A DNA stretch of 64,000 bases from Candidatus Bathyarchaeota archaeon RBG_16_48_13 (GCA_001775995.1 MEZH01000001.1:1-64000), one strand, 5' to 3'; positions 48,480-60,276 are shown, numbered from the stretch's first letter. Made by a program: numbers and translations. The notes: generated by a model from the letters alone, not told the origin.

Positions 48480-48578
48480 TAGGTGTAAGAAGAGAATTTT
48501 TTATCACCTCCAGCAATCTGCAATTGATGCAAATATGGACTCTACACATATATAAAAACCCTGAAGCAGCGGGAATGG

Positions 48579-48735
48579 TGGGGCCGGTGCGATTTGAACA
48601 CACGATCTACGGGTTTCCCCGAACGCTCCAGAGTTTCTTCATCCCTGGAGTACAGGTCAATCCATTTTATGTACTCTGGAGCCCTTAACGTCAGGTTATG
48701 CCTGATGTCGTCATCCCTAGCTAGACTACGGCCCC
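48579..48735 (-). tRNA. tRNA-Trp(CCA), introns at 28/29 (22 nt, 48685-48706) and 37/38 (61 nt, 48615-48675); CCA encoded
   Basis: Manual reconstruction; 28/29 BHB central helix GACG/CGTT with TCAGG/CCTGA stem. Confidence 0.9.
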
Positions 48736-48855: not shown

Positions 48856-48962
48856 GGGGCTGTCTGCTAGTCTGGTCTAGACATTATGGGATTAGCTTCG
48901 TGGCTTGGGTGCATATAGGCAAAGAAACCACGAGATCGCCGGTTCAAATCCGGCCGGCCCCA
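48856..48962 (+). tRNA. tRNA-Pro(TGG), introns at 22/23 (14 nt, 48881-48894) and 37/38 (17 nt, 48910-48926); CCA encoded
   Basis: GGGGCTG/CGGCCCC acceptor; 22/23 BHB central helix GTCT/GGAT. Confidence 0.88.
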
Positions 48963-48976
48963 CCACATCAGTATAG

Positions 48977-49065: not shown

Positions 49066-49185
49066 ACATGAGAGAACAGATTCAGCAAACCTTTTAAATT
49101 GTTCGCATCCATCACACAACTTACTCTGGACCAGAAAGCGTAGAAACGTTTTCTGGCAAATAGTGTGTGCCGAGGGGCCTTATAG

Positions 49186-49319
49186 GCCGGGGTTGGTCTC
49201 CGACTACCGAAAGCTCAGCCTGGTTAGATGAGTGACCTCAAACCAAAGCGCCAGACCTCTCTATGAGAGGAGCGTTACTCATAATCTGGAGATCGTGGGT
49301 TCGAAACCCACCCTCGGCT
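49186..49319 (+). tRNA. Elongator tRNA-Met(CAT), introns at 8/9 (18 nt, 49194-49211), 22/23 (19 nt, 49228-49246) and 30/31 (22 nt, 49255-49276)
   Basis: Removing the three BHB-like inserts gives GCCGGGGTAGCTCAGCCTGGTTAGAGCGCCAGACTCATAATCTGGAGATCGTGGGTTCGAAACCCACCCTCGGC. Confidence 0.85.
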
Positions 49320-49324
49320 TTACT

Positions 49325-50029
49325 TCAAATGATGCTCTTCCTAAGAACATGTACAGTGGTTTTGTTACCAACGTAGACCTCTGTGGCCATATCTAGGAAA
49401 AGCCCTGTTTCAACAATTCCGGGGATCGTCTTGAGTTTGTTTTCGAGGTTTCCCGGTTCTTTTATGACGCCAAAATCCACGTCAATTATGAAATTGTTAT
49501 TATCAGTAATGACGGGCCCAACTTTGCCCAAGGACTGCCTTAAGATAGGTTTTCCGCCCAGTTGTTGGATTCTTTTCGACGATGTCTGTAGGGCGATAGG
49601 GAATATCTCAAGGGGAACTGGATGATCTAGAATCGCGGCAATTTTGGTTTCATCTACGACTATCAAGAGGTCTTTAGCGGCACTGTCAATAATCTTCTCG
49701 CGGGTTAGCGCCGCGCCTCCGCCCTTTATAAGGTTCAGATCTCTAGAGACCTGGTCAGCACCATCAATCGCGATGTCTATCTCAGGGTTTTCGTTGAGGG
49801 TAGTCAGTCTTATTCCAGATTCAATGGCCAAAAACATCGATTGATAGGAAGTGGGAATCCCTAAAACATTCAGACCTTCCGTCGCGATTCTTTTTCCGAG
49901 TTCTCTTATGGCATAAGCTGCTGTGCTTCCACTCCCCAAACCAACGATTTGGCCATCTCTAATTCTCTTAAGAGCTTGTTCAACGGCCGCTCTCTTTGCA
50001 TCCTCTCTCCAGTCCTTCTCAAAGGACAT
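49325..50029 (-). CDS. rpiA: Ribose-5-phosphate isomerase A
   Basis: GLGSGSTA, DGADQV and KGGGAAL. Confidence 0.96.
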   Translation of the reverse strand: MSFEKDWREDAKRAAVEQALKRIRDGQIVGLGSGSTAAYAIRELGKRIATEGLNVLGIPTSYQSMFLAIESGIRLTTLNENPEIDIAIDGADQVSRDLNLIKGGGAALTREKIIDSAAKDLLIVVDETKIAAILDHPVPLEIFPIALQTSSKRIQQLGGKPILRQSLGKVGPVITDNNNFIIDVDFGVIKEPGNLENKLKTIPGIVETGLFLDMATEVYVGNKTTVHVLRKSII

Positions 50030-50031
50030 TC

Positions 50032-50652
50032 TTAGATTCCAGCCTCGGTCTTGTCGAGTTTTTCGATGAGCTTCAGTACCTCTTCCCTGATATTCTCGAT
50101 CTTCTGTTCTGTTGGACTCTTAGGAGTTGGTGGCTTAGGCTTTGTCTCCTTTGGCCTAGTCTTTTCCGACGGAGTCTTGGCAGCCTCATCCTTGGGTTTC
50201 TCTTCAGCCACTTCGCTACGCTTTTGCCCCAAGAGGCCACGGACATCGTCGATCTTACGATTCAATTCATCTATCTTTTCGTAGAACATCCCGATTAGTT
50301 CAGATTGAGTCTCTTCCAGTTTGTATAAGTCTATGACGGACTGACTATAATCTAGTTTCTCTTCTATCTGACTAAGTTCTTCTTTATACTTCTTGGTGAG
50401 GTGGTCCCGTTCACCCTCGCTTATCTTTCCTTCAGCCTCTGCCTCATAGAGTCGCGTCAAGGCGTAGCTAGTGATCTCCTTCAAGAGGCTGGAGATCTTC
50501 AACTCCTCTTTCGCTTGAGTTGCCTCTTCATCTTTGATCGTCTTACTGGAGGTGAATGGCAATTTCATTCTTGGTTCTTCTGTAATGGGAAGAGTCGTCG
50601 ACTTTTCAGGCTCTTTCTTTTCTTTTCCGAAATATTTCATTATACGGCTCAA
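50032..50652 (-). CDS. Hypothetical coiled-coil protein
   Basis: 206-aa charged helical ORF whose stop abuts the rpiA start. Confidence 0.7.
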   Translation of the reverse strand: MSRIMKYFGKEKKEPEKSTTLPITEEPRMKLPFTSSKTIKDEEATQAKEELKISSLLKEITSYALTRLYEAEAEGKISEGERDHLTKKYKEELSQIEEKLDYSQSVIDLYKLEETQSELIGMFYEKIDELNRKIDDVRGLLGQKRSEVAEEKPKDEAAKTPSEKTRPKETKPKPPTPKSPTEQKIENIREEVLKLIEKLDKTEAGI

Positions 50653-50833
50653 AGAATCTGAAACCTCGGCTACAGTTAGGAGTATCCTATCCCGGATTAT
50701 GTAATTTCTGGAGTAGTTCTTATAAGCGTAATTTCTTCAAATAAAACATTTCTTGTCAATGGATTCGTTGGGAGAAAATTGGAAAAACATGGGCAATCCA
50801 GTAGGATTGCCGATTTTCGGGGAGGGAAAACAT

Positions 50834-50850
50834 AAAAGCTAATCTATAAC
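50834..50850 (+). promoter_or_regulatory. BRE/TATA-like promoter of tRNA-Thr(GGT)
   Basis: AAAAGCTAATCTATAAC; TATAA lies 21-25 nt upstream of 50870. Confidence 0.5.
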
Positions 50851-50882
50851 CTTCTTGAATGTCAAATGTGCCCCGGCATCGA

Positions 50883-51016
50883 GCCTCGGTACCCAAACCT
50901 TGGGCGAGAGAGCTCAGCATGGTCAGATGCCTTGAGTGCGAAGGCGGGCTAAAGCGCCAGCTTGGTATCCATCAACAAAGAGCTGTAGGTCGCGGGTCCG
51001 AATCCCGCCCGGGGCT
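50883..51016 (+). tRNA. tRNA-Thr(GGT), introns at 8/9 (20 nt, 50891-50910), 22/23 (26 nt, 50927-50952) and 37/38 (13 nt, 50968-50980); CCA encoded
   Basis: 8/9 intron has a strict BHB (GAGC/GCTC, CTCG/CGAG, CCCAA/TTGGG); 22/23 central helix GGTC/GGCT. Confidence 0.88.
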
Positions 51017-51389
51017 CCAAGATTTTCCACTTTAATTATGAAGGAAAAAAAGGAAGAATAATGATCACATGCCCGTGGAAGGGCACAATACCCGAAAAAG
51101 GCTATTCGTAACTACTTTTTCTTTGGTTTTGCTTTTGCTTTCTTCTTGGACATTATAGAGTTCTCCGACTCGATAATTTTGTAGCTTTTAGAATAAAAAA
51201 CTTTACATCGAGAAACTGGCCCTAAACCAATTCGAAGAAGAGTTTGGAACCAAACCGCACCTTAGACGCATTCTGGAGCGGTATTTGGAAGCTGTTATTT
51301 CATAGAAAAAATTTAAAGACTCGTTTTGAGTCAATTAAGCGCCTTTATAGAGGAAACTCGTCTTTAAGACTTCACAATGAGGAACCTAA

Positions 51390-52223
51390 ATGTACCAGAT
51401 AGTAGCCGAAATAGAACTGGCGCCTAACATAAAGCAATTCAGAATCAATGCCCCGCTGATAGCAAAGAAATGTATGCCAGGTCAGTTCATAGTTCTCCGA
51501 ACGAACGAGAAAGGAGAAAGAATTCCTCTAACTGTCTTCGAAAAAGATCCCGGGGAAGGGACGATTACAATAATATTCCAAGAAGTGGGGAAAACTACCA
51601 AGGAGCTCGGTAGATTGAGAACCGGGGAGGCCATTCAAGACGTCGTTGGACCGCTCGGCACTCCTTCCGAAATTAGAAATTATGGTCAAGTCGTGGCGAT
51701 AGCTGGCGGAACGGCTGCTGCTGTGGCTTATCCGGAGATTAAGGCTTTGAAACTAGTTGGAAACAAACTGATAACCATTTTGGGTGCTCGCAGTAAGGAT
51801 CTCTTAATTCTTGAGGAAGAAATGAGAAAATACAGTGATGAATTATACATAACGACCGATGATGGCTCAAAGGGTCACCATGGTTTTGTGACAGATGTTC
51901 TCAAGAAGCTTGTTGCTGATGGTAAGAAAATCGACATGGTTCTAGCTATAGGGCCAGCTATAATGATGAAGGTCGCTTCAGAGATTACTCGACCTTTCAA
52001 CATACGGACGATTGTTAGCGTCAACCCTATTATGTTGGACGCTACAGGGATGTGTGGCGTCTGTAGAGTAAGGGTGAACAACGAGATGAAGTTGGGCTGC
52101 GTTGACGGACCGGAATTTGATGGGCACCTAGTGGATTTTGATCAACTTATGGCCCGCCAAAATATGTATACAGAAAAGGAAAAGGAATCCCTTCACGCAT
52201 ACGAAGCCAAAATGAAAAAATGA
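51390..52223 (+). CDS. nfnA: NfnA/SudB-type FAD/NAD-binding subunit of a bifurcating transhydrogenase
   Basis: ERIPLT, GPLG and DATGMCGVCRV..CVDGPEF motifs. Confidence 0.88.
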   Translation: MYQIVAEIELAPNIKQFRINAPLIAKKCMPGQFIVLRTNEKGERIPLTVFEKDPGEGTITIIFQEVGKTTKELGRLRTGEAIQDVVGPLGTPSEIRNYGQVVAIAGGTAAAVAYPEIKALKLVGNKLITILGARSKDLLILEEEMRKYSDELYITTDDGSKGHHGFVTDVLKKLVADGKKIDMVLAIGPAIMMKVASEITRPFNIRTIVSVNPIMLDATGMCGVCRVRVNNEMKLGCVDGPEFDGHLVDFDQLMARQNMYTEKEKESLHAYEAKMKK

Positions 52224-52236
52224 AAGGTGCAGGATA

Positions 52237-53724
52237 TTGGAGCTAAATAAAATAGACACAGGAATTTCAACCAAAGAGATGATATTGAACATAGTACTTT
52301 ACAAGGAAGACCCAAACTATCCAACAGTCTACAGATATTTTAGAAGACAGGAAATGCCAAAGCAACCCATAGTAGAGAGGATCAAGAACTTCAACGAAGT
52401 TGCTTTAGGTTTTGAGCCGGACCAAGCTATAATGGAAGCGAGCAGATGTCTGCAATGCCAAGATCCTCAATGTCGAAGGGGCTGTCCTGTTGGCATCAAT
52501 ATCACATCTTTCTGCGGGTATGTTAGAGAAGGAAATTTTGACAAGGCCATCTCAGTGATTAGAGAAAGCAACAGTCTTCCAGCAATATGTGGCAGAGTCT
52601 GCCCTCAGGAGAGTCAATGTGAAGCTTACTGCGCGATGGGTCAAACAGGGTCGCCTCTAGCTATCGGAGCTTTGGAGAGATTCTTAGCTGATTACGAATT
52701 GAAGAAGGGAATTACGATGCCTAGTATCGCTCCAATTACTGGAAAAAAGGTTGCTGTAATTGGATCTGGACCAGCAGGATTGACTGTAGCTGGGGACCTA
52801 GCCAAGTTAGGTCACATTGTCTCTATCTTTGAAGCTCTCCACACACCAGGTGGCGTACTAGCTTACGGTATACCTGAATTCAGATTGCCTAAGTCGATTG
52901 TGGCTGCCGAGGTTGACTATGTCAAAAGACTTGGTGCAAAGCTGGAGACTAACATGGTAATTGGAAAGATTTTCACAATCGATGAACTCGTTGAAATGGG
53001 GTACCAAGCGATTTTTCTAGGGACTGGAGCTGGATCGCCTTATTTTCTTAGTATATCTGGAGAAAATCTGAATGGAGTCTACTCGGCAAATGAGTTCTTG
53101 ACCAGATGCAATTTAATGAAGTCATATCTCTTTCCAGAATACGATACGCCTCTGATTGTGGGAAAGGAAGTTGTAGTGATCGGAGGAGGAAATGTGACAA
53201 TGGATTCTGCCCGAACCGCTTTGAGGCTCGGGGTGGAGAAGGTACATGTGGTATATAGGCGATCTGAACAGGAGATGCCAGCTCGAAGAGAAGAGGTTCT
53301 GAATGCTAAAGATGAGGGGATACTGTTTAATTTCTTGACATACCCTCTGCGACTCATAGGCAACTCTAGGGGTTGGGTTGAGAAGGTAGAATGCGGAATG
53401 ATGGAACTTTGTGAGCCTGATGAAACGGGTAGGAGAAGACCAGTACCGATCCCCAATCATAGTTTCACGATAGATGCTCAGACAGTGATCATAGCTATAG
53501 GTCAGGGACCAAATCCGCTCCTGTCAAAAGTGACAAAAGATCTTGAAACGGACAGAGATGGCCGTTTCATAGCTGACGAATGGGGAAGGACATCAAAGAG
53601 GGGCATTTGGTCAGGGGGAGATGTTGCAACCGGGTGGGCGGATGCAACGGTCATCAACGCCATGGGTACGGGAAAGAGGGCGGCATCTTCAATTCATCAA
53701 TTCCTGACAACTGGCCAATGGTAA
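52237..53724 (+). CDS. nfnB: NfnB/SudA (GltD-like) NADPH-dependent flavoprotein
   Basis: RCLQC..C..GCP, CGRVCPQE..CE, GSGPAG, GIPEFRLPK and GGGNV. Confidence 0.88.
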   Translation: MELNKIDTGISTKEMILNIVLYKEDPNYPTVYRYFRRQEMPKQPIVERIKNFNEVALGFEPDQAIMEASRCLQCQDPQCRRGCPVGINITSFCGYVREGNFDKAISVIRESNSLPAICGRVCPQESQCEAYCAMGQTGSPLAIGALERFLADYELKKGITMPSIAPITGKKVAVIGSGPAGLTVAGDLAKLGHIVSIFEALHTPGGVLAYGIPEFRLPKSIVAAEVDYVKRLGAKLETNMVIGKIFTIDELVEMGYQAIFLGTGAGSPYFLSISGENLNGVYSANEFLTRCNLMKSYLFPEYDTPLIVGKEVVVIGGGNVTMDSARTALRLGVEKVHVVYRRSEQEMPARREEVLNAKDEGILFNFLTYPLRLIGNSRGWVEKVECGMMELCEPDETGRRRPVPIPNHSFTIDAQTVIIAIGQGPNPLLSKVTKDLETDRDGRFIADEWGRTSKRGIWSGGDVATGWADATVINAMGTGKRAASSIHQFLTTGQW

Positions 53725-53778
53725 ACCGCCGTCATTTCTTATCGCAGTTTGAGATTGCTTCTTGGGTGGAACGATGAT

Positions 53779-54590
53779 TTGAACTGGAACACTCTCATAT
53801 TAGAGGCAGCCACAGAAGTAAAGCGAAGAGTCACACATCTAGTTGGGACAAATGAGGGCAGAAGATCTTTTGGAATTGGAGCTGGCGGGGACACCACAAG
53901 AAAAATAGACAAGGCTGCGGAAGAAGCGATCGTTGATACCTTGAATTATCAGTGTGCTGCACCTTTGTGAGCGAGGAAATGGGCACTAAGATCATAGGTG
54001 GAGAATCAGATTTATTCGTGGTGGCGGACCCTGTTGATGGGACAACTAACGCACTTCATAGCATAGATTTCTATGCTACATCCATAGCAATCTCTGACAA
54101 ACCATTTTTGGACGGGGTGTTCTACGGATTAGTAATGAATCTGGTGAATGGTGAAGTATTTGAGGCTGGAAGAGGAAGAGGAGCTCTCCACAACGGACAG
54201 CCATTAGAGGTATCAAGCGAGACGGACGTCGCTTCGAGCATTGTAGGTATAGACTTAAGTGGAATCGATAAAATCATGCTGAAAAGAGTTGAACCAATTA
54301 TTTTGAGTTGCCGTCATCTAAGGCATTTTGGCGCCAACGCATTAGAGTTATGTCAAGTGGCTTCTGGACTGATAGAAGTATTTATCGATATTAGAGATAG
54401 GATTCGAGCTACTGACATAGCAGCAGCTTACTTACTACTAAGAGAGGCGGGTGGAGTGGTGCTGGATCCTACTGGGGTTGAACTAAATGTACCCTTGACC
54501 CCCAAATCCAGAGCATCTTTGATAGCCGGAAACCCAAAGATATGCAATAGGATTCTGGACAAATTCAGAATAGCCTCAAAGATTTACTGA
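53779..54590 (+). CDS. Inositol monophosphatase/FBPase family protein, frameshifted near 53950
   Basis: GAGGD..ID-x2-AE in one frame; SEE, DPVDGT and DIAAA in the next. Confidence 0.85.
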
Positions 54591-54675
54591 TCGTGGCAGC
54601 AGATGATTCTTACTCCTTAACGGATCGAAGCTAAGTCAGGATTGATGTGGGTAGGTGTTTTTAGGATTTCAATGG

Positions 54676-54760
54676 TGCGGAGGAAGGGATTTGAACCCTT
54701 GGACTCCTGCGAGACAAGGTCCTGAGCCTTGCGCCTTTGACCAAACTTGGCTACCTCCGC
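54676..54760 (-). tRNA. tRNA-Leu(CAG), no intron; CCA encoded
   Basis: GCGGAGG/CCTCCGC acceptor, CAAGG/CCTTG stem, long variable arm. Confidence 0.95.
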
Positions 54761-54886
54761 TGCAAACTAACCATAAGGGATATGCTCTCTCCCTTAAATA
54801 TCATTACTTAGAAAGAACAGAAACATTTCCAATTGAGAATCTTTTGAGTAAAGTGGACGAAATTGAGTTTAGCTTTAGAAAGATGG

Positions 54887-54971
54887 TGCGGGGAGTGGGA
54901 CTTGAACCCACGAAGGCCTGCGCCATAGGAGCCTCAGTCCTACTCCTTAGACCTAGCTCGGAAATCCCCGC
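54887..54971 (-). tRNA. tRNA-Leu(GAG), no intron; CCA encoded
   Basis: GCGGGGA/TCCCCGC acceptor, TAGGA/TCCTA stem, long variable arm. Confidence 0.93.
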
Positions 54972-55037
54972 CTTGCCGACCAGAATCTAGATGGAATATT
55001 TCTTAGCTATTAAGGTATTCCAATTCCAAATGAATGA

Positions 55038-55111
55038 AGCCTCGGCCGGGCTTCGATCCCGGGACTTACGGCTTACGAGGTCGTCGCTCTACCAGACTGA
55101 GCCACCGAGGC
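55038..55111 (-). tRNA. tRNA-Thr(CGT), no intron
   Basis: GCCTCGG/CCGAGGC acceptor; one A.C mismatch in the anticodon stem; T-loop ATCGAAG. Confidence 0.85.
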
Positions 55112-55202
55112 ACACTAACTATTGGAGAGGTAGAGGTTTTTAAAGAAATTTTTCATAATCTAAGGATATTATGTATAGACTCCTAATTGTGGGGCGTGAT
55201 AA

Positions 55203-56237
55203 GTGTTGTTGAGAGCTAAGGATCTTGGGGAATGGAAGATAATAGATATCTTCCATAAGAATTTCGAGGAAGCTCCTGATCTTCTAGTGCCCTTTGGCGA
55301 TGATGTCTCTGTGGTTGACCTTGGAAAAGATGCTTTGGCAGCAATTAAGACGGATATGTTGGTAGCTTCGACCGATGTGCCACCTGGGATGACGGACTGG
55401 CAAGTGGGTAGAAAAGCAGTGGTCGGAACGATAAGCGATTTTGCAGCAAAAGGGGTCGAACCCAAGGCCGTACTGGTCTCTTTGGGTATTCCTGCTGAAT
55501 ATTCGAAAATCAGCTTGGAAGCTTTAGCCAAAGGAGTCAATGCCGGGGCCAGAGAATACGGTGCCTTTGTCCTCGGAGGTGACACAAATGAGTCCAGAGA
55601 TCTGGTAATTGCAGTTATGCTCTTGGGGGCGACAAGAAAAGGCCAAATAACTCTCCGAAGCACAGCGAAACCCAATGATATTGTAGCTGTCACTGGCCCA
55701 TTTGGGAAGACTGCGGCAGGGCTACAATGCCTTGTTGATAAAACGGTAAGAATTCGCAGGAAGCTGGAAGCGGAACTATTGGAAGCCTTGTACATGCCGA
55801 AAGCAAGACTAAATGAGGGACTGACCCTGAGCAAGCGTGGTCTAACAACTTCCATAATTGATTCTAGCGATGGGCTAGCTTGGAGTCTTCACGAATTATC
55901 CAAATCAAGTAGAAAGGGGTTCATTGTAGACAAGTTGCCAACAACTGAGTCTGTGAAGGAATATGCAAAAATGAGCAACATTAAGCTTGAGGATCTTATC
56001 CTCTACGGTGGCGAGGAATATGAATTGGTCATGACTGTAAACCAAGAGAAATGGGAAGAAGCCAAAGAGGCTATTGAACAAGTCGGTGGAAAACTCATTA
56101 GAATTGGTCGCACAACACGTGAGCGAGGTGTTAGATACAAAAGAGGTCATGATACGATACTTATTGAATCTCGTGGATGGGAACACTTCAAATCAGGTGA
56201 TCAAAACAAGGAGACTCTAGCAAGGAGATTCAGGTAA
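55203..56237 (+). CDS. thiL: Thiamine-monophosphate kinase
   Basis: GDD, ISDFAAKG, GGDTN, DSSDGL and GGEEYEL. Confidence 0.93.
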   Translation: MLLRAKDLGEWKIIDIFHKNFEEAPDLLVPFGDDVSVVDLGKDALAAIKTDMLVASTDVPPGMTDWQVGRKAVVGTISDFAAKGVEPKAVLVSLGIPAEYSKISLEALAKGVNAGAREYGAFVLGGDTNESRDLVIAVMLLGATRKGQITLRSTAKPNDIVAVTGPFGKTAAGLQCLVDKTVRIRRKLEAELLEALYMPKARLNEGLTLSKRGLTTSIIDSSDGLAWSLHELSKSSRKGFIVDKLPTTESVKEYAKMSNIKLEDLILYGGEEYELVMTVNQEKWEEAKEAIEQVGGKLIRIGRTTRERGVRYKRGHDTILIESRGWEHFKSGDQNKETLARRFR

Positions 56238-56300
56238 AGATGACTAATTTGTGAAAGATCATCACGCATGCGATGCAAGCTTTCTCGCATGTAATTGTAG

Positions 56301-56445
56301 CGGGCCCGACGGGAATTGAACCCGTGACCCCCGGATTTCTTCTTTTCTCATTAAAAGTTTCACCGAAGCGCCATTTTCAGGCGACCTCTCCGATGCTCTT
56401 CCTAGCTGAGCCTCCCGGCCGAAACAAAGATCGGCTTACGGGCCC
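56301..56445 (-). tRNA. tRNA-Lys(TTT), introns at 9/10 (25 nt, 56412-56436), 30/31 (31 nt, 56359-56389) and 37/38 (15 nt, 56337-56351)
   Basis: 9/10 strict BHB (GGG/CTC, CCCG/CGGG, GCCGA/TCGGC); 30/31 central helix CATC/GGTG; G73. Confidence 0.88.
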
Positions 56446-56481
56446 ATGGACCCGCTAAGAAGCTTTCTCAAACGGAATCTT

Positions 56482-56530
56482 CCTAATAACTTTTCCTCTT
56501 CCATTTGTTATAGTAAAAATTTAAATAAAA
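56482..56530. promoter_or_regulatory. Divergent BRE/TATA-like promoters for tRNA-Lys (minus) and tRNA-Asp (plus)
   Basis: Minus strand GAAAAGTTATTAG about 27-33 nt upstream of 56455; plus strand TTTAAATA at 56520-56527. Confidence 0.5.
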
Positions 56531-56553
56531 ACTGCTCATTCAATGTGATGGAA

Positions 56554-56680
56554 GCCCTGGTAGTATAGCCCGGCCTAGTATGTGCGGCTGAACCCGAAAA
56601 AAGGGTAGCCGAATCACCCGCACGACCCGGGTTCAAATCCCGGCCAAAGGAAAGAAAAGAATCTTTCCTACCGAAGGGCG
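56554..56680 (+). tRNA. tRNA-Asp(GTC), introns at 34/35 (23 nt, 56591-56613) and 68/69 (29 nt, 56647-56675); CCA encoded
   Basis: Removing both gives GCCCTGG/CCAGGGC acceptor, G73, TGCGG/CCGCA stem and loop CTGTCAC. Confidence 0.85.
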
Positions 56681-56769
56681 CCACACTTTGATAGTGCCGG
56701 GGCTTCGCCATTCCATCAATTGACCGGTTGTCATTTTTATAAGCTCCAAGAGCGATAGATCATTTCCAG

Positions 56770-60092: not shown

Positions 60093-60276
60093 CCCGAGGT
60101 AGCTCAGAGCTCACGGGAACAAAACCCTTGAACGGGTAACCTGGTAGAAAAGTGCCCAAGGTTGGGCCACGCCAAAAGCTTCCGGCTGTAGGCATTTGCC
60201 ATGAAGTGCAAGTACTACTCAGCCTATCAGGCTAACAGATACCGGAGTGTCAGGTGTTCAATTCACCTCCTCGGGA
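60093..60276 (+). tRNA. tRNA-Tyr(GTA), introns at 15/16 (32 nt, 60108-60139), 22/23 (29 nt, 60148-60176) and 37/38 (49 nt, 60192-60240); CCA encoded
   Basis: C1:G72 and A73 Tyr identity; TCCGG/CCGGA stem; 37/38 central helix CTGT/ACAG. Confidence 0.87.

Follow-up and report, generated by a model that had tools for sequence, protein, structure and literature searches.

A short element complementary to one strand of the acceptor stem flanks the transfer RNA (tRNA) genes of a bathyarchaeal genome whose introns lie close to or within that stem. The genes were found in a stretch of 64,000 nt from Candidatus Bathyarchaeota archaeon RBG_16_48_13 (GCA_001775995.1 MEZH01000001.1:1-64000, hereafter the window) and then followed into the rest of the genome and its relatives. 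The element is complementary to the acceptor strand left free by the intron's bulge-helix-bulge (BHB) motif, lies on the matching side of the gene, and is found within about 20 nt of the mature end. We consider it probable that the element acts in cis as a stand-in for one acceptor strand, and its interpretation as a folding helper is best supported, and likely in our judgment, on the 5' side.

An intron at positions 8/9 to 10/11 forces the 4-bp central helix of the BHB onto nucleotides 3–8, which also form the GC-rich acceptor stem, so that the two folds are mutually exclusive. In the mechanism we propose, the primary transcript would begin with 7–10 nt complementary to the 3' acceptor strand, often covering the discriminator and C74-C75 as well, and this stand-in would pair with the 3' end and so cover the energy needed to open the real stem. 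That would release the true 5' strand, which could then join the intron in the BHB cut by the splicing endonuclease. Upon ligation the true strand would be without its intron partner and could displace the stand-in, which RNase P cleavage at the true +1 would remove permanently. The first-pass annotation of the window had further suggested that RNase P, RNase Z and CCA addition may be held back until splicing is complete. When the intron lies in the 3' strand, as in tRNA-Asp, a trailer element may play the same role for the 5' strand, although this is the weaker half of the proposal.

Elements and introns in the window and near relatives

Four tRNA genes of the window (Table 1) were singled out by the first-pass annotation, which had been made from the sequence alone and had placed a second copy of an acceptor strand beside each of them. 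All four copies are found where it put them, the intron positions hold (two with strict and two with relaxed BHBs), and the central helix of the BHB does use acceptor-stem bases in every case. The Lys element is shifted: it is not a plain copy but matches 6/7 in register and pairs additionally with G73 and C74. In both Met and Thr-GGT the leader copy is a perfect Watson-Crick partner of the 3' strand, and the true strand contains one G.U wobble, at a base that finds another partner in the BHB (A for U4 of Thr-GGT, a Watson-Crick pair, and C for G5 of Met). The exon-1 side of the strict Thr-GGT motif reads gagc[CTCG](GT/A), with the slash at the junction, and the relaxed Met motif has a central helix of 3 pairs plus a G:A mismatch, an inner helix of 4 bp and a 3' bulge AA/A.

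Table 1. Elements, acceptor strands and introns of the four tRNA genes in the window (slashes within sequences mark exon-intron junctions)
Feature	Position	Strand	Remarks
tRNA-Met(CAT) leader element GCCGAGG	49169-49175	+	fully Watson-Crick to 3' acceptor CCTCGGC; pairs with 49312-49318 in minimum free energy and partition-function folding
tRNA-Met true 5' acceptor strand GCCGGGG	49186-49192	+	G5.U68 wobble; U8 at 49193; nt 3-5 pair with intron 3' ACCG
tRNA-Met intron 8/9, 18 nt	49194-49211	+	relaxed BHB, read by hand; end CTACCGAA
tRNA-Met 3' acceptor strand CCTCGGC	49312-49318	+	discriminator T at 49319
tRNA-Thr(GGT) leader element GCCCCGG	50870-50876	+	fully Watson-Crick to CCGGGGC; orthologous elements in relatives
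tRNA-Thr(GGT) true 5' acceptor strand GCCTCGG	50883-50889	+	U4.G69 in stem, U4:A in BHB; U8 at 50890
tRNA-Thr(GGT) intron 8/9, 20 nt	50891-50910	+	strict hBHBh', score 35; outer helix 4 bp, inner 5 bp
tRNA-Thr(GGT) 3' acceptor strand CCGGGGC	51009-51015	+	T73 at 51016; CCA 51017-51019
tRNA-Lys(TTT) leader element GCGGGTCC	56448-56455	-	8 bp with positions 67-74 (GGGCCCGC)
tRNA-Lys true 5' acceptor strand GGGCCCG	56439-56445	-	
tRNA-Lys intron 9/10, 25 nt	56412-56436	-	strict BHB: tggg[CCCG](TA/A)...[CGGG](AG/G)ctca
tRNA-Lys 3' acceptor strand CGGGCCC, G73 and C74	56300-56308	-	strand 56308-56302; G73 at 56301; C74 at 56300
tRNA-Asp(GTC) leader GAA and 5' acceptor strand GCCCTGG	56551-56560	+	
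tRNA-Asp intron 68/69, 29 nt	56647-56675	+	within 3' acceptor strand (CCA/.../GGGC); relaxed BHB; end CTACCGAA
tRNA-Asp trailer element CCGGGGCTTC	56697-56706	+	10 bp with GAAGCCCTGG (leader and positions 1-7); folding P = 1.00

The tRNA gene cluster spans 48.5–60.3 kb of the window, and the majority of its genes contain one to several introns. ARAGORN detects 5 tRNA genes in the window and Rfam adds some others at sub-threshold scores only; since both tools catch simple tRNAs only, the gene models were built from T-arm/acceptor scans and a BHB finder. For the source genome (an assembly of 848 kb in 16 contigs that is 75% complete), the scan for T-arms was followed by a listing of every upstream partner of the next 7 nt. 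The BHB was defined by its published geometry (restated in bioRxiv 10.64898/2026.10.13.758758), in which the last six bases of exon 1 form the 4-bp central helix and two bulge bases, the partner strand is the 3' part of the intron, and the first base of exon 2 sits in the second bulge. By this measure all four central pairs form in Gln, Glu, Tyr, Ser and the Thr orthologues, the Thr-GGT and Lys genes of the window are strict, and the motif is relaxed in Met, Asp and Asn, where three of the four pairs form. Intron removal restores the cloverleaf (acceptor stem, U8, and a D-arm right after position 9) in Lys, Ser, Asn, Gln, Glu, Tyr and the Thr genes of relatives. The automated D-arm check misplaced the introns of Met and of the window Thr-GGT, which were both set by hand, and further introns in the multi-intron genes are partly resolved. 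A loose genome-wide scan for a repeat plus its complement gave mainly noise and zero new tRNAs.

Across the source genome, the flanking element accompanies all seven tRNAs whose intron lies between 8/9 and 10/11 (Met, Thr-GGT, Lys, Ser, Gln, Asn) or at 68/69 (Asp), and the first six of these make up the full set of tRNAs in which position 9 is not followed by the D-arm. Three of them, namely a class II Ser, Gln(TTG) and Asn(GTT), were added on contig C7, where each has an intron directly after position 8–10 and two candidate 5' strands 12–20 nt apart; the gene with acceptor GCCGCCG is identified as Asn(GTT) by its micro-exon GCTGTTA. Among the remaining tRNAs (about 30), the element is present in Gly-GCC only, and the scan confirmed the earlier observation that the comparison tRNAs of the window (Tyr, Trp, Pro-TGG and Leu) are without a duplicate. 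The tRNA-Gly(GCC) gene (contig C7, about 103271-103381; locus L035) has a canonical intron only, yet GCGGTTG stands 18 nt upstream of its true strand GCGGTCG, and this copy may be left over from an acceptor-proximal intron that the gene has since lost.

The association also holds among near relatives. Orthologues of Thr-GGT in another family of the same order and in another order have kept both the 8/9 intron and the copy, and in five relatives, Gln, Glu, Tyr and Asn genes with 8/9 to 10/11 introns (reached via partial Rfam hits) all have exact copies separated by spacers of 2–6 nt, with no copy beside the D-loop-intron genes in the same relatives' loci. An orthologous contrast is provided by tRNA-Tyr: the window gene (60093-60276, plus strand) has introns in the D-loop and elsewhere, none at 9/10, and is without a leader copy, whereas a relative's gene (L042, genome G011) is interrupted at 9/10 and shows CCCGCGG twice, an exact copy with a spacer of 3. 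In a set of 124 tRNA-like genes, 7/7 pairing was found for 15 of 17 genes with an 8/9 to 10/11 intron (6/7 for the other two) and for 1 of 96 without such an intron, which corresponds to a Fisher p of about 1e-15, bearing in mind that the relatives are not independent. When leaders and 3' strands were swapped between genes, 7/7 pairing anywhere in the 45-nt leader occurred in 1.4% of pairs, so that a chance match is rejected as an explanation for the 15 of 17.

The Met 8/9 and Asp 68/69 introns share the end CTACCGAA, and the 8/9 to 10/11 introns of other tRNAs in relatives often end in (G)CCGAA or CCGAG. These common ends suggest one intron family that has moved among tRNA genes, as proposed for Thermoproteales.

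Intron-defined sets and conservation of pairing

For the survey of relatives, 201 class genomes were searched by patterns built from the exon-intron-exon junctions only, so the leader played no part in the selection of genes. Since in-register scoring of strict 7-mers under-counts elements of the Lys type, it was replaced by the longest helix formed with positions 66–76. A Gln gene with a 10/11 intron was found 32 times in 26 genomes, and all 32 have a 7/7 copy 2–12 nt upstream (AGCCCGG in 19 and GGCCCGG in 13, the change A1>G retaining the pair with U72). A copy with at most one G.U occurs in 0 of 13 intron-less Gln genes, two of which have G.U-rich 7-mers that may be relics. For acceptor GGGCCCG with a 9/10 intron, the type represented by Lys in the window, a leader helix of 7–10 bp is present in 30/30 genes; the typical element is GGCGGGYYN, the complement of 67–75, or leader T-GGGCCC where the discriminator is A. 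Thr-GGT genes with an 8/9 intron (n = 20) show a full copy in 11 cases, a partial one of 5–6 nt anchored at position 1 in seven, and none in two. By the same longest-helix measure, at least 7 bp is reached in 4/96 control genes.

In these sets the element is commoner beside acceptor-proximal introns (32/32, 30/30, and 18/20 at a length of at least 5 nt) than in the control genes. The wording of the first-pass annotation that every such tRNA has a copy is too strong given the Thr-GGT set, and the rule tying element to intron is strong but not absolute.

It is also important to consider what in the element is conserved. Where copies differ, the change is for the most part C>T facing G, or A/G facing T, and the spacers vary in both length (-1 to 13 nt) and sequence as the copy is retained. 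The base preceding the copy follows the discriminator: it is T in 15 and C in 13 genes with A73; A in 5, G in 2, C in 1 and T in 3 with U73; and C in 16, T in 2, G in 2 and A in 3 with G73. Family f27 shows two forms: one genus, with GCC at the 3' end, has GGC before the copy, and another, with A73, has T there. The leader thus follows a base that is absent from the copied strand, which means that conservation acts on the pairing with the 3' end, and since nothing in the 5' strand corresponds to the discriminator or CCA, duplication by itself is insufficient as an explanation. Covariation with the 3' end, which had been suggested as a check, is observed.

Transcript start, folding and alternative explanations

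When 45 cases are aligned on the first base of the copy, a sharp A+T peak (0.90–0.95) appears at -29 to -26, and 94 ordinary tRNAs aligned on +1 have an A+T-rich zone at -38 to -30. The usual archaeal distance from TATA box to start site, applied to the peak, places the start at the copy or 1–2 nt before it. The Gln 10/11 copies have a purine as first base and a preceding pyrimidine in 32/32 genes. Judging from this promoter geometry, transcription appears to start at the copy, which would put the element inside the primary transcript.

In the minimum free energy structures the partner of the 3' strand is the distal copy, and the true strand lies in the BHB; this holds for Met, Thr, Ser, Gln and Asn. 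Partition-function folding was averaged over 17 genes in three constructs. In the wild type the probability is 0.87 for pairing of the element with the 3' strand, 0.06 for the true stem and 0.51 for the BHB helix; mutation of the element changes these values to 0.00, 0.44 and 0.13, respectively, and in leaderless constructs the true stem reaches 0.97 with the BHB helix at 0.001. In these models of secondary structure, formation of the BHB depends on the elements. The source genome has an RNase P RNA (199 bits), and the EndA catalytic domain PF01974 is encoded by two genes in each of four genomes of the same order and by one gene in a genome of another order. A pair of EndA-domain genes is also what the broad-specificity (alpha-beta)2 type has (PMC5829648).

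Several results weigh against the stand-in. With the first intron removed, the two-dimensional model still favors it over the true stem (P of 0.85 vs. 0.10) by 0–11 kcal/mol, so that the return to the true stem must rest on tertiary folding and the irreversible RNase P cut; this strand exchange, which we infer, is the weakest link of the mechanism. The two Thr-GGT 8/9 genes without an element (in genomes G100 and G003) and the seven with 5–6 nt only indicate that it is not indispensable in every lineage. The shared ancestry of the relatives means that the counts overstate the number of independent events, and PF01974 was not found in the 75%-complete source genome. Finally, in folding of Asp the BHB does not become consistently more probable through the trailer element.

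This last result bears on the possibility that the chief role of the element is to mask or protect the 3' end of unspliced RNA (against CCA addition, aminoacylation or exonucleases), or to offer other enzymes a tRNA-like minihelix, and that the BHB is not enabled by it. The helix of the GGGCCCG family covers G73, C74 and C75, and Asp of the source genome has a 10-bp leader-trailer stem with no gain for the BHB in modeling, both as expected for masking. Such a role leaves unexplained why the element is restricted to genes whose BHB uses an acceptor strand, when D-loop, anticodon and T-arm introns in the same genomes are without it. We regard masking in place of BHB formation as unlikely, and masking as such is compatible with the stand-in rather than opposed to it.

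A second alternative is that replication slippage duplicated the 5' acceptor strand in short tandem and that the upstream copy is simply its neutral outcome, with no role in processing. Many copies are indeed exact direct repeats of 7 nt at distances of 9–27 nt, and decayed-looking copies exist in the intron-less Gly-GCC and in 2/13 intron-less Gln genes. In two genera, sister genomes have two copies and one copy, respectively (L212/L213 and L217/L216), with the single copy at the site expected of the distal one, as for gain or loss of a unit. The leaders of the single-copy Thr-GGT loci L213 (G100) and L216 (G003) align with the sequence upstream of the distal copy in the sister genome (L212 and L217), as though one repeat unit of copy and spacer had been lost or never gained. 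Units are thus gained and lost within genera, probably by slippage. Neutral slippage would not, however, produce 32/32 and 30/30 across more than 10 families as the spacers diverge, would not extend to or covary with the discriminator and C74-C75, which lie outside the 5' strand, and would not be nearly absent from 96 controls. Slippage may well be the origin of the copy and leaves its retention unexplained; as a full account it seems improbable.

On the 3' side the evidence is thinner. An Asp 68/69 intron occurs in 9 of the 201 genomes, from six families, and the trailer element C[CT]NGGG[CT] lies 5–13 nt after CCA, with scores of 7/7 in three genomes including the source genome (G000, G004, G046), 6/7 in four and 5/7 in one; a further genome (G017) has a weak 7/7 match further out with four G.U pairs. 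The trailers of intron-less Asp genes (n = 12) match in 5/7 positions at most. In the source genome and one relative (G009) the helix continues into the leader for three bases, where a compensatory change separates the two genes (GAA/TTC vs. GGA/TCC). The first-pass proposal that the element pairs with the orphaned strand and frees the other for the BHB fits the computed evidence on the 5' side (the intron-defined sets, conservation with diverging spacers, covariation and folding), and is left in doubt for Asp, with its partial conservation and lack of a consistent folding gain. The 3' half is real and probably functional, though not established, and the stand-in reading is plausible there but weaker than on the 5' side. 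Two further genes were met in this connection. A tRNA-Asp (L151, genome G046, contig C6) has an intron inside the 5' acceptor strand (at about 6/7) with a leader copy GCCCTGG, and also the 68/69 intron with a trailer copy CCGGGGT, so that both stand-ins occur in one gene. The sole 3'-strand intron met besides Asp is at 70/71 of a tRNA-Pro(GGG) (L052, genome G004, contig C18; CGTCC/.../CC A CCA), whose trailer TGTCCT can pair with 6/7 of the 5' strand.

The similarity of the Asp trailer of the source genome (CCGGGGC TTC GCCA) to the spliced end (CCAGGGC G CCA) could also point to a remnant of an att-like integration-site duplication of the tRNA 3' end. The repeat is only about 10 nt long here, the repeats as a group measure 7–10 nt at a distance of 2–13 nt, and the neighboring open reading frames (ORFs) are housekeeping genes (RpiA, AIR-synthase-like and luciferase-like monooxygenases) with no integrase among them. 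The element moreover stands at the same place in 68/69-intron Asp genes of six families, with one compensatory change, and 0/12 intron-less Asp genes reach 6/7. We find this origin very improbable and reject it.

That the gene models are wrong, so that the real 5' acceptor strand would be the distal copy and a longer intron would include the proximal one, would fit the better Watson-Crick partner in Met and Thr-GGT, the usual promoter distance of the distal copy and the identical mature sequence that identical copies would give either way, but it is rejected, as highly improbable, by strict BHBs that cut directly after the proximal strand and U8/A9 (Thr, Lys, Gln, Glu, Tyr), by U8 following the proximal copy and not the distal one, and by the many elements unfit as an acceptor strand (5–6 nt long, shifted to 67–75, or abutting or overlapping nucleotide 1). 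Split or permuted tRNA genes are likewise rejected: gene order is colinear throughout with a single promoter-like AT peak upstream, and the upstream piece copies the 5' strand, not a 3' half.

The stand-in can be extended to an obligatory checkpoint, a joint claim that we put forward tentatively and think rather doubtful as a whole. The pre-tRNA would be leaderless from birth, its stand-in engaged at once in a pseudo-acceptor stem that also conceals the discriminator and CCA, so that unspliced RNA could not be charged. Only removal of the intron would let the true 5' strand invade the stem and create the RNase P substrate, and cleavage would license the tRNA, which would force splicing before 5' maturation. 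Under the same claim, stand-ins made by slippage would have let introns colonize acceptor-proximal positions in Bathyarchaeia, Asgard and DPANN.

Two other features of the window were noted. The regions 48576-48735 (minus strand) and 48856-48965 (plus strand) are sub-threshold matches to transfer-messenger RNA (tmRNA) in Rfam and are actually multi-intron tRNAs that standard finders miss, with acceptors GGGGCCG and GGGGCTG and an encoded CCA. The ORF at 52237-53724 (plus strand, 495 aa) has its closest relatives in the genome collection among bacterial metagenome-assembled genomes (Bacillota, Krumholzibacteriota and Latescibacteria; 55–58% identity) and, judged by this similarity, may be a transfer into the archaeon.

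Significance and relation to known systems

To our knowledge, it has so far been unexplained how EndA gains access to splice sites whose motif conflicts with a very stable acceptor stem. If the reading is correct, a transcript-encoded stand-in strand would be a simple answer to this problem. It would predict a fixed order, with splicing before RNase P, would mark where transcripts start, and would suggest a route for intron gain at otherwise lethal positions. The element also offers a new signal for tRNA gene finders, as such genes are missed by ARAGORN and are sub-threshold in Rfam.

No description of such a leader or trailer element was found in full-text literature searches or in the accessible text of PMC4090602, PMC3218864, PMC4033280, PMC8450103, PMC3239211, PMC5829648 and a 2026 preprint with an Asgard census, a coverage that does not extend to the Mol Biol Evol work on Thermoproteales of 2008–2010. 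Non-canonical and multiple BHB introns in archaeal tRNAs are well documented (Marck and Grosjean, 2003), including one at position 3/4 in Thermoproteales, and are reviewed in PMC4090602 and PMC4033280. The introns described here share with them the 4-bp central helix, the two 3-nt bulges and the strict and relaxed forms, and four genomes of the same order carry two EndA-domain genes each. The difference is that the published accounts, in the portions available, treat the intron and its exon partner and do not mention a leader or trailer stretch that stands in for the acceptor strand displaced.

Split and permuted tRNA genes (Nanoarchaeum, Caldivirga, Thermofilum; PMC3218864 and PMC3978253) are similar in that leader and trailer sequences outside the mature tRNA pair and enable splicing. 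Their leader and trailer build the BHB itself between the pieces, whereas here the gene is colinear and the element pairs with the mature 3' (or 5') acceptor strand and does not build the BHB. Archaeal ribosomal RNA processing stems (PMC7714728) likewise have a long-range helix between precursor ends that accompanies EndA processing, but their BHB lies in the leader-trailer helix, and in the tRNAs the helix mimics the acceptor stem with the BHB elsewhere. With alternative-helix switches such as attenuators and riboswitch anti-terminators, the element shares the principle of two mutually exclusive helices contending for a single strand, the outcome being set by a third segment. The likeness is one of logic only, as there is no ligand or ribosome here, and the proposed trigger would be the removal of the intron, with the irreversible RNase P cut as the reset.

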